A stretch of DNA of 64,000 nucleotides from Escherichia phage 235Ecol030PP, in sequence record PP355091.1; one strand, written 5' to 3'. Shown here piece by piece: positions 986 through 10,156 of this stretch (position 1 is its first letter; every line of letters begins with the position of its first letter). The position numbers and the translations under genes are program-made. The notes below the pieces were generated by a model. That model did no database searches, had not been told where the DNA came from, and saw nothing but the letters and a program-made list of their open reading frames with translations.

Positions 986-1040
986 TTCCTCCAAGTAGTT
1001 GATGAATGTATAGTATCAAAACCCTTGGAGGAAGTAAACA
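986..1040 (-). promoter_or_regulatory. early sigma70-type promoter with stem-loop (PeSL-like cassette), copy 1
   Basis: minus strand GTTTAC (fwd 1034-1039), 18-nt spacer, TACTAT (fwd 1010-1015); 10-bp inverted repeat TTCCTCCAAG/CTTGGAGGAA (fwd 986-995 and 1024-1033). Confidence 0.5.
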
Positions 1041-1041
1041 A

Positions 1042-1323
1042 CTATTTTTCTGAAGCGCCTGAAATATATTTTTCAAGACGTTGTTTCATCAGCGAGCCGT
1101 TCTTAGCGATTTCTTCCGGTTTATCGCACATACGCAACAAGGCTTCAAGCTTAACGATATCACTGGTGCGCTCAAATTTGCGAGTATCTATCTTACTAGC
1201 AAGTTCAGAAATACGTGCTAATAGACTTTCAGCTTCAACCAAAGCTGCACCTAGCTTAGTTGCAAATGTGTCAGTAGCTTCGTTAAGAATAGATTCTGAT
1301 AAAAATTCACTATATGTTTTCAT
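1042..1323 (-). CDS. CTS-bearing internal-protein-like gene, no T4 counterpart recognised
   Basis: ATG at 1323 overlaps lysozyme stop (ATGA); N-terminus [16 protein letters not shown] with L-x-E motifs; track ORF upstream part starts at TTG. Confidence 0.55.
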
Positions 1324-1808
1324 ATATACGCTTTCCAAGTTCCTGTTTTAAATGTTGAGATTACGCGTTTCGCGCGATTAGGTGTCTGACGATACCATTT
1401 AGATTGGGCTAGATTTACTGCCGCTTCGTCCCAACGTTTCTGTTGAAGCATACGCAAAGAGTTAGTAAATCCTGCCACGCCAGTTTCTCCCATTTGGAAG
1501 ACCATATTAATCAATGCACAGCGACGAACCGCATCAAGAGAATCATAAACCGGTTTTAATTTAGCATTTCTCAGAATTCCGCGAACAGCAGCATCAACAT
1601 CCTGATTAAAGAGTTTTTCAGCCTCATCTTTTGTAATTACACCATTGCAATTACGCCCAATAGCTTTGTCTAATTCAGATTTAGCAACATTAAGTGATGG
1701 ACTTTTAGTAAGCAAATGACCGATGCCAATAGTGTAATAGCCTTCTGTGTCTTTATAGATTTTAAGTCTAAGACCTTCATCTATACGTAACATTTCAAAT
1801 ATATTCAT
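1320..1808 (-). CDS. e: lysozyme (endolysin), T4 gene e homolog
   Basis: 162 aa [33 protein letters not shown]..., near-identical to T4 lysozyme with divergent C-terminus. Confidence 0.97.
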
Positions 1809-1845
1809 AATACCTCCTAAGTATTTATAGAAGGTATTTATAAAA

Positions 1846-2286
1846 TTAAAAGAGGTTGTTCATTATTCGGTAAAGTGAAGGACCCATCACATATTGCCAC
1901 TGGGTACGAGGAATAAGAGCAAAAGCGTCCATCTCTGGAATCATAACACCATCTTTATTTTCAAAATAAGACTCACAATGGCAATTTCTAAACATCTCAT
2001 GCTCTACTGGAATCGTATAATAAAATAACTGTAAGTCTTTATTACTAGAATATTTAAATACACCTAGGTCTTCTAGAAGGTCTGGATTATAATTGCCAAA
2101 ACCAGTCTCTTCTAAGCATTCTCTTCGTGCTGCATTTAATGCGCTTAAATCAGAATTTTCTACACGGCCCTTTGGAATATCCCAACGATGTGCCATCATT
2201 CCAGGCTTACGAGAACCAGTAACCCGACCCATAAATAAATCTTTATCTTCTGTCATAAAGATAATACCAGCTGATAGTGTTTTCAT
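1846..2286 (-). CDS. nudE: Nudix hydrolase NudE (e.1)
   Basis: Nudix box [23 protein letters not shown]; ATG at 2286 has AGGAAA RBS and overlaps upstream stop (ATGA); alternative ATG at 2301. Confidence 0.85.
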
Positions 2287-2771
2287 TTTAATTTCCTGCA
2301 TTCAGTGATAAAGTTATTTAAATTTTGAGTATATTTCTTTTCATCAAAAATCTTTTGTTGTCTGCGTAAACGCCATGGCATTTCAATGAACACACACCAT
2401 ATTCCTGATAATATTGCTGTTGTCAAAATATTAACAAGTATGATTAAAAGAATCCAATCTCCCGTTCTGCCTACTGGACTTTCTCCAAAGAAGCAAAATA
2501 CAAATGATGTCACAGGAAGACTAATAATATACCACAGAATCATAATCTTATCTGTGAACCAATCAGCGTTCGTTAACTTAGCACGACCGTTTTGAATACA
2601 TACGAACTTATCATCTGTTATAATAGATGGCTTAGCTGCTTGATATCCCATTCTAAACTCCCTAATCAACAAATTTTTCATATCTTCGGAACAACCATTC
2701 CAGTCAACTCTATCAACTGGAATGCCATCATCCCCATCATCTAAATCATACCAGCGAGTTTTTAAAATCAT
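2283..2771 (-). CDS. small membrane protein, e.2-like, paralog family member
   Basis: hydrophobic segments; C-terminal motif NFITECRK; ATG at 2771 overlaps upstream stop (ATGA). Confidence 0.6.
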   Translation of the reverse strand: MILKTRWYDLDDGDDGIPVDRVDWNGCSEDMKNLLIREFRMGYQAAKPSIITDDKFVCIQNGRAKLTNADWFTDKIMILWYIISLPVTSFVFCFFGESPVGRTGDWILLIILVNILTTAILSGIWCVFIEMPWRLRRQQKIFDEKKYTQNLNNFITECRKLK

Positions 2772-3130
2772 CTGATTTTCCTGCAATCACTCACAAACTC
2801 TTTCATTGCTTCATTTTCAATATAAGAAATGTAGCTATTATATTCCTTTAATTGTATTTTGTAATCTTTTTTTCTTTGCCAATTTATTTTAAAATTATCA
2901 TAATGAAAATATAACATGGTACCAAAGAATGAAAATAATGAAATAATTTTAGTATAGTGAAGTTCACTCCAAACTTCTATTATATTTACTGTGCCGTCAA
3001 TGTTTAAAATAAGACAGTCAATTAACAATCCAAAAAGACTACCCGCAAGAGCTGCAGCCAACGCCACAGCAAAAATTAAAAATGACTCAGGAAGCGAATA
3101 TTTGGCTTTATTTAGTTTTGGCTTTTGCAT
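2768..3130 (-). CDS. small membrane protein, e.3-like, paralog family member
   Basis: 120 aa; N-terminal TM helix; C-terminal motif EFVSDCRK. Confidence 0.6.
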   Translation of the reverse strand: MQKPKLNKAKYSLPESFLIFAVALAAALAGSLFGLLIDCLILNIDGTVNIIEVWSELHYTKIISLFSFFGTMLYFHYDNFKINWQRKKDYKIQLKEYNSYISYIENEAMKEFVSDCRKIR

Positions 3131-3504
3131 CGTGATTCCTTAACAAATTTCATAATTTCATTAAATTCATACTCAGCAAGTTTAAGCTGGTGTTCCTTTT
3201 TAATCTTTTTACACTGAGCTTTCCAATCGTGTACACGTTTACGATAATGTCTTCCTTGATACCAGTATCCTACCCAATTTACGGGTACTAATAAAAGTGG
3301 AACTACCAATGGAAGAATTAGCATTAACACAAGTATTTCGCCAGAATCAATATCAGTCATAACATCTAAAACACCTCCAATAATCAATAGAATTACAAAT
3401 GATATAAGTATAACAGGACCTATTAATACATCAGTAGAAATTATCTGGTGCTTTGATTCATACTTCAAAGGTTTACTTGGAAGGTATAGTGATGGTTTTG
3501 ACAT
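3112..3504 (-). CDS. small membrane protein, e.4-like, paralog family member
   Basis: ATG at 3504 (MSKPSLYLPSKPLKY); track ORF starts at TTG 3525; TM-rich; C-terminal motif KFVKESRCK. Confidence 0.6.
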   Translation of the reverse strand: MSKPSLYLPSKPLKYESKHQIISTDVLIGPVILISFVILLIIGGVLDVMTDIDSGEILVLMLILPLVVPLLLVPVNWVGYWYQGRHYRKRVHDWKAQCKKIKKEHQLKLAEYEFNEIMKFVKESRCKSQN

Positions 3505-4083
3505 ATTCTCTACATTCCTTAACAAATTTTTCTAATAATAAATCGCTTTCAAAATTGGGATTTTCCACGAATTTATCAAAAAGATCATCAACAATAGTTA
3601 AGATATTCTTTTTACTAAGAATACGCTTATTTTCATGCTTCGTTTCAGAATCAACTATAAGAGTAAAGAAATATTTCTTGCCCTGAAATTTTACAGTAGT
3701 ATCAATATAGAATAAATTTGACTTTTGTAAATTACGTTTAAACCATGCGTCGCTTAAACTATAAACGCCAAGATAATCATAATCGTCGTTTAAATAACAG
3801 ACCGTCCATTCAGGAGAAACAAAATCAGTAAATTCAACGTCAAAATCGCATATGTTAATAAATGAATTGATTCAATACTGTTAATAAGTATTCCAGGACG
3901 TATTAAAGACTTTTTACCTCTAGAAAATCTTCCAGAAAGACTTTCATCAGTTTCATATGAAGAACCCCAATAATAATTACGTCCTTCTGCCATACGTTTA
4001 AGAGCATTTAATAATTGGTCTGGAACATCAACCTGTCTTTGAAACTCTTCAAACATTGAATTGAAATCACTTTGCATTTTCAT
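3473..4083 (-). pseudogene. frameshift-interrupted ORF (e.5-like), 4th member of paralog family by C-terminal motif
   Basis: ATG 4083 frame open to 3790; a second frame with no ATG/GTG start runs 3871-3473 and ends EKFVKECREYVK; frames join with a 1-nt indel near 3855-3872. Confidence 0.45.
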
Positions 4084-9536: not shown

Positions 9537-9537
9537 T

Positions 9538-9723
9538 CTATTCACCTTTAGAAATTTTATCCATAACGATAGCAATTAAACCAATTAAAAATGCTACTAC
9601 AAGTGAAAATACATTTTCTGCTGTAGTTAATAATCCGCATATAAATCCAACAAACATTGAAAAACTAAATGCAGAAGCAGAAATTGCAATAGCAACATTT
9701 CGAATTAATTCACAACGTTTCAT
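9538..9723 (-). CDS. small hydrophobic protein, two predicted TM helices
   Basis: 61 aa, ATG 9723 with GAGGAG RBS directly downstream of early promoter copy 3. Confidence 0.5.
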   Translation of the reverse strand: MKRCELIRNVAIAISASAFSFSMFVGFICGLLTTAENVFSLVVAFLIGLIAIVMDKISKGE

Positions 9724-9751
9724 TTTATTCTCCTCAGTAGTTGATAGGGTA

Positions 9752-9781
9752 ATAGTATCACAACTAAAACCCTATGTAAAC
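9752..9781 (-). promoter_or_regulatory. early promoter with stem-loop (PeSL-like cassette), copy 3
   Basis: GTTTAC (fwd 9776-9781), TACTAT (fwd 9752-9757); inverted repeat ATAGGGT/ACCCTAT brackets the -10. Confidence 0.5.
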
Positions 9782-9799
9782 AACTTTGTGAAAAATTTA

Positions 9800-10084
9800 T
9801 TACAAAAGATTTTTAGCAATAATTTTAAGCTGAGCTACTGAAATATGCTTGGCTTTAAACAAAGCAGTTTCTTCAGCAGGGGAGATAATGATTGTAGCAC
9901 CATCTTTCTTAGCGGACCATCCATCACCCAGGTAAACAGTACCTTTAACTTCTTCGCCATCAACCAGGCTAATCATCGGTTTACCTTCACGTCCTTTGTT
10001 TGCTTTAATAACTTCAGAAGTAAGGGTCGCTTCAGTCAAAGTAGAAGCGTTAGTGGTTGAAGTGAATTCTTGATAAGTTTTCAT
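9800..10084 (-). CDS. ipI: internal protein at the ipI position, CTS-bearing, divergent mature sequence
   Basis: 94 aa; N-terminus MKTYQEFTSTTNASTLTEA; sits immediately downstream of 57B as ipI does in T4. Confidence 0.6.
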   Translation of the reverse strand: MKTYQEFTSTTNASTLTEATLTSEVIKANKGREGKPMISLVDGEEVKGTVYLGDGWSAKKDGATIIISPAEETALFKAKHISVAQLKIIAKNLL

Positions 10085-10114
10085 TTTATTTTCCTAATTA
10101 ATTTTGATGAGGTA

Positions 10115-10144
10115 ATAGTATCACTACCTCATCAGCATGTAAAC
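10115..10144 (-). promoter_or_regulatory. early promoter with stem-loop (PeSL-like cassette), copy 4
   Basis: GTTTAC (fwd 10139-10144), TACTAT (fwd 10115-10120); inverted repeat TGATGAGGTA/TACCTCATCA brackets the -10. Confidence 0.5.
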
Positions 10145-10156
10145 AACTTTGTGAAA

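Follow-up and report, generated by a model that had tools for sequence, protein, structure and literature searches.

In Escherichia phage 235Ecol030PP, a repeated promoter cassette was found in front of small early genes within a stretch of 64,000 nucleotides (record PP355091.1), which was analysed as a whole and is referred to as the window. Its four copies of the form GTTTAC-N18-TACTAT are predicted to be sigma-70-dependent early promoters of the T4 type. We consider it probable that one combined explanation covers the observations, in which the cassettes act as promoters, provide the shared homology for exchange of gene modules and insulate each module against transcriptional read-through. 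The identity of the promoters and the outcome of recombination are argued from sequence and from comparison with related phages, and the action of the hairpins on read-through RNA is what we infer.

The first 12 kb of this Tequatrovirus window, a region matched by roughly 1,100 records of the genus, are 93-95% identical to Tequatrovirus genomes such as those of Phaginator (a Shigella phage) and G8 (an Escherichia phage), and represent the early T4 region holding both internal protein (IP) loci, spanning ipIII-e-tRNA-ipI-57B-1. By comparison with the annotated records of G8 and T4, the gene order on the minus strand was read as ipIII (cut by the start of the window), two more IP genes, e (lysozyme), nudE, e.2 to e.8, a tRNA cluster with a segB-like endonuclease, trna.2 to trna.4, ipI, 57B, 57A, 1, 3 and 2. 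An Rfam scan of positions 1-12.5 kb detected eight tRNAs only, and no RNA family overlapping the cassettes. For the comparison of gene shuffling, we used six annotated relatives and 24 IMG/VR loci retrieved via gp57B.

Early promoters at the internal protein loci

The pattern GTTTAC-N17-19-TACTAT is matched exactly four times in the 64 kb, always on the minus strand (1010-1039, 5474-5503, 9752-9781 and 10115-10144) and always with a spacer of 18 nt. The number expected by chance is 0.02, so that the observed number is 200 times the chance rate, and none of 100 shuffled sequences reached four. The initial annotation, made from the sequence alone, had described the same four minus-strand copies; its positions were right for three of them and one base short at each end for the second (5475-5502). 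It had also described a conserved core downstream in all four copies, which was in error as to both place and number. The core of 20 nt, TTTCACAAARYTGTTTACAT on the transcribed strand, lies upstream of the -35 box and includes it, and is present in three copies (5496-5515, 9774-9793 and 10137-10156) but not in the copy at 1010.

An independent repeat search recovered the same repeat family (D1 and D2), with an identity of 62-81% over 45-53 nt. Exact blocks of up to 20 nt are common to the cassettes, including the AT-rich stretch, CACAAAGTT, GTTTAC(AT), (G)TGATACTAT and the ATCAAC leader, and the cassettes in front of IP genes additionally have 30 nt of capsid-targeting codons in common. Each cassette directly adjoins the stop codon of the preceding gene on one side and the Shine-Dalgarno (SD) sequence and ATG of the following gene on the other. 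The promoters are on the early-gene strand, 20-50 nt ahead of the SD sequence and ATG.

The published consensus of T4 early promoters consists of GTTTAC at -36 to -31, an extended -10 box with TGn and an AT-rich UP region (PMC1524935, PMC2988021). The -35 hexamer, the spacer, a -10 box of the form TAnnnT, the TGn motif and the UP region were found in all four copies. The TG extension ahead of the -10 box is present at 10143, 9780 and 5502 and, as judged by eye, at 1017-1018, and the AT-rich runs upstream of the -35 box are TTTAAAATAATTT, TAATAAATTTTT and TTTTTAAAAAATTTTT, with a weaker run at the 1010 copy. The downstream genes, ipI, trna.4, e.8 and the remnant of denV, are in the same orientation and carry SD sequences of their own. 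The four sites are orthologous to the T4 sequences upstream of the same four genes, with an identity of 95-97% (97% for the ipI cassette and the T4 ipI promoter region). The T4 early promoters described by Liebig & Rueger (1989) and Wilkens & Rueger (1996), as cited in PMC2988021 and PMC1524935, share this consensus and are likewise located ahead of early genes, on the counter-clockwise strand. In the GenBank record of T4, promoters are not annotated as features, apart from a single note.

A relaxed scan gave at least nine early-promoter sites followed by an SD sequence and ATG in the first 12 kb. Beyond the four, these include the sites at 579-608 (ipIII), 4746-4774 (e.6), 5137-5166 (e.7) and 11593-11622 (gene 1), and another promoter is located at 57740-57769. 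The four copies first listed are just those members of a larger promoter family that have TACTAT as the -10 box.

Pairing between promoter spacer and leader

Inverted repeats of 7-10 bp around the -10 box had been noted from the outset in three of the four copies, and were confirmed at 10115, 9752 and 1010 (Table 1). The hairpin of the ipI promoter (-17.4 kcal/mol, fold score z=-5.7) has the -10 box in its loop, and its 3' arm extends over the discriminator and the start site. In the hairpin of the denV promoter, the 3' arm (986-995) contains the denV SD sequence GGAGGA. The copy at 5474, in front of e.8, has no inverted repeat (z=-0.25), and an intrinsic terminator is located 137 nt upstream from this hairpin-free promoter. 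Strong fold scores, with z between -4.2 and -5.9, were obtained at four promoters of the window.

The 5' arm is always located within the spacer that separates the -35 box from the -10 box, upstream from the start site expected by inference, while the 3' arm is located past the -10 box. The transcript from a gene's own promoter therefore cannot form the stem, and only read-through RNA or DNA can. The compact stems (10115, 9752 and 5137; promoters of ipI, trna.4 and e.7) enclose the -10 box in their loop and have the discriminator within their 3' arm, leaving the SD sequence and AUG outside. In the distal stems (the denV promoter at 1010, the gene 1 promoter and the promoter at 57740-57769), the 3' arm is the SD or AUG region itself. 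The promoter of gene 1, a core gene for dNMP kinase, shows this cassette-like architecture, and the stem is kept in T4 and G8 with two G.U pairs. The promoter at 57740-57769, which is conserved in T4 at 123093, has a hairpin with a predicted energy of -23 kcal/mol (z=-4.7) and a 3' arm spanning the SD sequence GAGG. As to the stem motifs, AGGT/ACCT, AGGG/CCCT and AGGC/GCCT are present in the window, compared with the published AGNA/TCNT, for which the source paper notes high variability; the variants AGGA/TCCT and AGAA/TTCT were found in relatives.

For a survey of such pairing, 109 unique promoter-to-ATG sequences were collected from the window and 29 loci, and the same sequences with shuffled spacers were used as the control. 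A perfect repeat of at least 7 bp between the spacer and the 5' untranslated region (UTR) was found in 53% of the sequences, compared with 5.5% after shuffling, and one of at least 9 bp in 28%, compared with 0.4%. The stems comprise 38 distinct arm sequences with loops of 8 to 28 nt, and the 3' arm reaches the SD sequence or AUG in 17 of the 58 strong stems. In T4, about 20 of roughly 35 early promoters of the GTTTAC type fold with z of -2 or lower, including those of motB, dexA, regB, denV, ipI, ipII, alt.-3, 30.8, 30.9 and gene 1. As predicted by folding, hairpins embedded in the promoter occur genome-wide among T-even early promoters and are not peculiar to exchanged genes.

The pairing at the denV promoter is kept with changed sequence, being TTCCTCCAAG/CTTGGAGGAA in the window, TCTCCTGTAG/CTACAGGAGA in T4 and a 14-bp version in locus L024. 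Six different stems were found among the trna.4 promoters, and the regB stem is 7 bp long in T4 and 15 bp long in locus L023. The anti-SD pairing at both denV and regB is maintained through sequence change. An alignment of nine promoters of the e.7 locus gave two compensatory pairs and 95% pairing, a result equalled by 26 of 500 shuffles and in which one of the pairs is mis-specified by a gap column. When G-T pairs were permitted, the stems lengthened more than in the null, and when A-C pairs were permitted, less than in the null. The substitutions within stems lean toward G.T, which weakly favours a structure of the sense-strand RNA; the count of mismatches adjoining the stems is confounded by conserved promoter bases.

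In T4, a perfect palindrome surrounds the -10 box of the ipII promoter (14 bp) and of the ipIII promoter (8 bp), at 65799 and 66498 (TCCTAGAATTGTGA...TCACAATTCTAGGA). The same AATTGTGA/TCACAATT stem as in these two promoters is carried by the denV promoter of one relative (locus L007). Since an identical stem stands ahead of different genes, promoters appear to move between genes.

We tentatively raise the possibility that this half-hairpin, a spacer complementary to the 5'UTR or SD sequence of its own gene, is a design rule selected genome-wide. If so, translation of an early gene, and its exposure to RegB cleavage at GGAG, would be restricted to transcripts of its own promoter, and read-through RNA would be silent or attenuated. 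The module would then be autonomous in both transcription and translation, which would explain the free shuffling of cassettes, and the early promoters would join the late genes e, soc, 49 and I-TevI as a class gated by hairpins. GGAG sites of T4 are shielded from RegB by RNA structure. If the trait is confirmed, about half of the T4 early promoters hide in the spacer a complement to their own leader, a compact insulation device for phage engineering.

Exchange between cassettes and competing explanations

In the interval from 57B to trna.4, bounded by the copies at 10115 and 9752, the number of IP genes is 0, 1, 2 or 3 among the 24 loci, and their types differ. The proposal of the initial annotation that such cassettes mediate modular shuffling predicts differences of this kind between relatives, and it survives the comparison. 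The ipI gene is an exchangeable module between two cassettes, being replaced, duplicated or absent in relatives. In PTE-Eco15, which lacks ipI, a single hybrid cassette stands in place of the two in the window. Its left flank is that of the ipI cassette and, from the shared TTTCACAAAGTTGTTTACAT onward, its sequence is that of the trna.4 cassette, the very chimera that would be expected of a crossover inside the shared 20-nt core. Where IP genes are replaced, homology breaks in the spacer of the downstream cassette (9764) and just past the capsid-targeting codons (10065). In Shinka and PaulHMueller, unrelated genes take the place of e.7, and the replaced segment is bounded exactly by the cassettes at 5137 and 4746.

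A direct repeat in four copies (519-550, 841-872, 1292-1323 and 10053-10084) corresponds to the first 10 or so codons (capsid-targeting, MKTYQEF...) of four IP genes. This repeat carries the recombination-prone homology of the cassettes on into the coding sequence.

The cassette intervals make up 7% of the sequence and contain 12 of the 57 breakpoint clusters as well as 86 of the 242 ends of high-scoring segment pairs (36%), an enrichment with a binomial p of 5e-4. Across the 12 kb, breakpoints recur most often at three cassettes, 9752 (18 loci), 4746 (15 loci) and 10115. Each copy had been supposed to precede a small accessory or IP gene, and thereby to mark a gene recently exchanged. The former is true of the ipI copy and fails for the 1010 copy, which is ahead of the denV remnant; the latter does not stand, since nearly all relatives retain e.8 and trna.4. 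Because the design of promoter and hairpin is genome-wide in T4 and includes core genes, the presence of a hairpin alone is no marker of exchange. Exchange often takes place at a cassette, but the cassette does not by itself mark its neighbouring gene as exchanged.

Alignment with phages that keep denV showed that the window has lost about 300 bp of this gene; the deletion used a short direct repeat within it, AATTATGaCtCGT/AATTATGtCcCGT, which is imperfect (7 exact bases). The deletion is common to G8, Phaginator and Shinka, and the gene is intact in PaulHMueller, PTE-Eco15 and T4. The denV gene (endonuclease V, UV repair) is, as judged from this alignment, a pseudogene in the window. With the junction at a repeat inside the gene, loss of denV by an event between cassettes was rejected.

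In the combined explanation, each small early gene would be a self-expressed module by virtue of its own promoter, SD sequence and ATG, and the shared blocks of the cassettes would be portable homology for the T4 recombination machinery. Crossovers between neighbouring or allelic cassettes would delete, insert or replace the intervening gene and leave the neighbours undamaged; the comparison with relatives shows such outcomes for ipI and e.7. The full hairpin would form only in read-through RNA from an upstream promoter and would most likely insulate the module. The compact stems may attenuate or end-stabilise the upstream transcripts, and the distal stem of the denV promoter may mask the SD sequence.

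Chance in an AT-rich sequence (G+C content of the window, 36%) might account for four matches with inverted repeats, as matches to a generic sigma-70-like pattern are about as common in the window as in shuffled sequences (51 versus 45). Such an origin is scarcely conceivable in view of the excess of exact matches over expectation, of stem probabilities of 0.0005-0.002 with z down to -5.9, and of the conservation of orthologous sites in dozens of phages. The cassettes could also be independent strong early promoters, alike by consensus constraint and adjoining breakpoints only because viable rearrangements fall between genes, with no role in recombination. Most of the shared positions are known promoter elements, the family identity is modest over some 50 nt, many breakpoints are found elsewhere and the denV deletion made use of a repeat within the gene, in agreement with such an account. 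We nevertheless think it unlikely, because the PTE-Eco15 junction falls within an identical core that reaches past the promoter hexamers, because the most recurrent breakpoints coincide with cassettes between which the copy number of IP genes varies, and because mini-circles between analogous elements were shown experimentally for RB49.

As to the inverted repeats, the classical reading of promoter early stem-loop (PeSL) elements takes them mainly as terminators or attenuators for the upstream gene, with masking of the ribosome-binding site as an incidental effect. The stem-loop of an RB49 PeSL reduced expression of a downstream lacZ to a degree similar to that seen with the rrnB T1 terminator (Arbiol 2010, PMC2839356), and the compact stems in the window leave the SD sequence free, so this reading deserves some credence, though we doubt it. 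The stems are not followed by a U-run, nearly a third of the strong ones reach the SD sequence or AUG, denV and regB retain their anti-SD pairing through sequence change, and the stems are richer in AT than those of RB49. The terminator scan detected two genuine terminators, with stems at 5641-5664 and 6199-6222 and a run of TTTTT behind each stem, and none at the cassettes; canonical intrinsic terminators were accordingly rejected as an identity for the cassette stems. Alternatively, the inverted repeats could act as DNA, either as cruciforms aiding promoter melting or cleavage and recombination by endonuclease VII, or as operators for dimeric regulators. The position of the -10 box in the loop of the compact stems, the perfect 14-bp palindrome at the T4 ipII/ipIII promoters and the speculation of Arbiol 2010 (PMC2839356) on a recombination protein binding the stem-loop are in line with action as DNA. 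It is rendered quite improbable by the diversity of the arms, which excludes a common operator, by the wide range of loop lengths, by the many 3' arms that are anti-SD partners and meaningful in RNA only and, weakly, by the excess of G.T over A.C.

Several points weigh against the combined explanation of promoters, module exchange and insulation. Start sites were placed by consensus spacing. Three of the nine promoters (those of e.8, e.6 and ipIII) have no hairpin, the cassettes were devoid of hits in the terminator scan, and the 8 unique G.T versus 3 unique A.C substitutions resolve RNA from DNA only weakly. A total of 45 of the 57 breakpoint clusters are located outside the cassettes, including those of the tRNA/segB region, an insertion at 8363-8907 and the denV deletion; in comparisons at 65-80% identity, some of the breakpoint signal comes from gene boundaries and not from sites of crossover; and T4 recombines at many short homologies of 2-10 bp anywhere.

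The internal proteins of T4 each specifically inhibit different type IV restriction enzymes of the GmrSD kind, and loss of one narrows the host range. Since the modules between cassettes include these injected inhibitors, cassette-mediated gain, loss or swapping of IP genes would be a route to host-range change, which concerns T4-like phages including therapy candidates. For annotation, the cassettes yield correct early transcription units and expose the apparent pseudogene of denV.

Known promoter elements and neighbouring features

The initial annotation had likened the four copies to PeSL elements, and their anatomy (AT-rich stretch, early promoter, stem-loop over the -10 box, SD sequence and ATG) fits. 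The commonest position of the PeSL stem-loop is in the spacer from the -35 box to the -10 box or one that overlaps the latter (Arbiol 2010, PMC2839356); given these positions, an obligatory location upstream of the promoter, as in a figure legend of Comeau 2014, was dropped. For the PeSLs of the PST/T4 pair, the consensus is TTTACW-N17-TAYWAT (Comeau 2014, PMC4122927), and all four copies in the window fit it. Like the PeSLs of T4-like phages, the cassettes are intergenic composite elements in hyperplastic regions adjoining insertions and deletions, where recombination deletes or inserts the flanked open reading frame (ORF) (PMC2839356, PMC4122927). A PeSL-type stem, for which positions overlapping either box or immediately up- or downstream are also described, was found at three of the four copies and at the e.7 promoter, and the hyperplastic location and chimeric deletion are likewise seen in the comparison with relatives.

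The PeSLs of RB49 and phi1 differ from the cassettes in having promoters of the TTGACA type, G/C-rich stems (GGGG...CCCC) and conservation over about 100 bp, whereas the cassettes have GTTTAC as the -35 box, AT-richer and variable stems and similarity confined to about 50 nt. The T-even elements are analogs, not homologs, of the RB49 PeSLs (Arbiol 2010, PMC2839356). The evidence for mini-circles and for terminator activity comes from the PeSLs of RB49. The T-even elements at the two IP loci were termed PeSL-like, after having been seen by Repoila 1994, and consist of T4 early promoters combined with weaker, AT-rich stems (PMC2839356). The promoter homologies flanking T-even IP genes in Repoila 1994 (EMBO J 13:4181, via PMC2839356 and PMC4122927) are located at the same loci (ipI between 57B and trna.4; ipII/ipIII by e), and agree with those in the window as T4 early promoters with AT-rich stem-loops and polymorphism of IP genes, with no substantive difference. 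The window is another isolate with the Repoila-type arrangement, and the element type is already known at these very loci.

In T4, the SD sequence or AUG of e, soc, 49 and I-TevI is hidden by a helix on long transcripts, and a late promoter inside the helix gives a translatable transcript without the 5' arm (Uzan & Miller 2010, PMC3014915). With the predicted start sites, the geometry of the denV, gene 1 and 57740-57769 promoters matches this gating. The known cases differ in using late promoters (TATAAATA) for temporal control, the inner promoter in the window being an early one. That about half of the promoters have a spacer complementary to their 5'UTR is unmentioned in PMC2988021 and PMC1524935. 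For anti-SD sequences in promoter spacers, the accessible reviews show late-promoter cases only, and older T4 papers may describe the early ones. What may be new is solely how widespread, and how well conserved, the complementarity between spacer and leader is at early promoters.

Table 1. Positions of promoter cassettes, their hairpins and adjacent genes in the window
Feature	Position	Strand	Description
Cassette P10144	10115..10156	-	before ipI; upstream core TTTCACAAAGTT 10145-10156; -35 GTTTAC 10139-10144; -10 TACTAT 10115-10120 with TG
Hairpin of P10144	10105..10134	-	arms TGATGAGGTA 10125-10134 (spacer) and TACCTCATCA 10105-10114; 10 bp, p=0.0005
Cassette P9781	9752..9793	-	before trna.4; core 9782-9793; -35 9776-9781; -10 9752-9757
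Hairpin of P9781	9744..9775	-	ATAGGGT 9769-9775 / ACCCTAT 9744-9750; 7 bp, p=0.09, z=-2.2
Cassette P5503	5474..5515	-	before e.8; core 5504-5515; -35 5498-5503; -10 5474-5479; no significant hairpin
Cassette P1039 (denV early promoter)	1010..1039	-	-35 1034-1039; -10 1010-1015
Hairpin of P1039	986..1033	-	arms TTCCTCCAAG 1024-1033 (spacer) and CTTGGAGGAA 986-995; 10 bp, p=0.002, z=-4.2
Cassette P5166	5129..5166	-	before e.7; -35 5161-5166; -10 TATTAT 5137-5142; overlooked in the initial annotation
Hairpin of P5166	5129..5160	-	arms ATAGGCTCAT 5151-5160 and ATGAGCCTAT 5129-5138; perfect 10 bp, p=0.001, z=-5.9
Cassette P4774	4746..4774	-	GTTTAC-N17-TATTAT, before e.6; no hairpin
Cassette P608	579..608	-	GTTTAC-N18-TATAAT, before ipIII (cut by window start); no hairpin
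Gene 1 promoter P11622	11560..11622	-	GTTTAA-N18-TATAAT at 11593-11622; spacer pairs with gene 1 AUG region, z=-4.3
Promoter P57769	57690-57769	-	GTTTAC-N18-TATAGT before alt.-3 ortholog (MKSSLR...)
denV remnant	879..982	-	ATG 980-982, 9-codon out-of-frame ORF (MTRPKRPLR*), then 3' ~100 nt of denV
ipI, internal protein I (94 aa)	9800..10084	-	MKTYQEFTST...; phrog_4363 internal virion protein, E=4e-48
trna.4 ortholog (61 aa)	9538..9723	-	conserved in nearly all relatives
e.8 ortholog (87 aa)	5167..5430	-	conserved in nearly all relatives
e.7 (111 aa)	4775..5110	-	replaced by other gene in Shinka and PaulHMueller
Internal head protein gene (86 aa)	612..872	-	phrog_2667; capsid-targeting-sequence repeat family D3
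Internal head protein gene (93 aa)	1042..1323	-	directly downstream of e; phrog_3499; family D3

The insertion at 8363-8907 separates the tRNA cluster from trna.2. Phaginator and PaulHMueller have it as well, and T4, G8, Shinka and PTE-Eco15 lack it. It brings in an ORF on the minus strand (8343-8894; phrog_2290, function unknown), the start of which overlaps the upstream stop codon. Neither a promoter cassette nor a repeat was found at the ends of this insertion.

Two 94%-identical intrinsic terminators on the minus strand (5632-5667 and 6190-6225) flank a module of 530 bp. T4 lacks this module, its homology stopping at 5666 and resuming at 6190, and Phaginator has an extra insertion at the same repeat. 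The terminator-flanked segment is a second type of repeat-bracketed module. Within it, the gene at 5680-6144 (minus strand), preceded by the late-promoter-like TATAAATA at about 6185-6192, encodes a protein whose start (MKSYTQFLNEA) resembles the capsid-targeting leader of the IPs and which matches phrog_2280. In comparison with G8 gp133 (153 aa), a deletion of 1 nt in an A-run (about 5862-5867) shortens the product to 111 aa; this is a genuine frameshift or else a sequencing error in the homopolymer.

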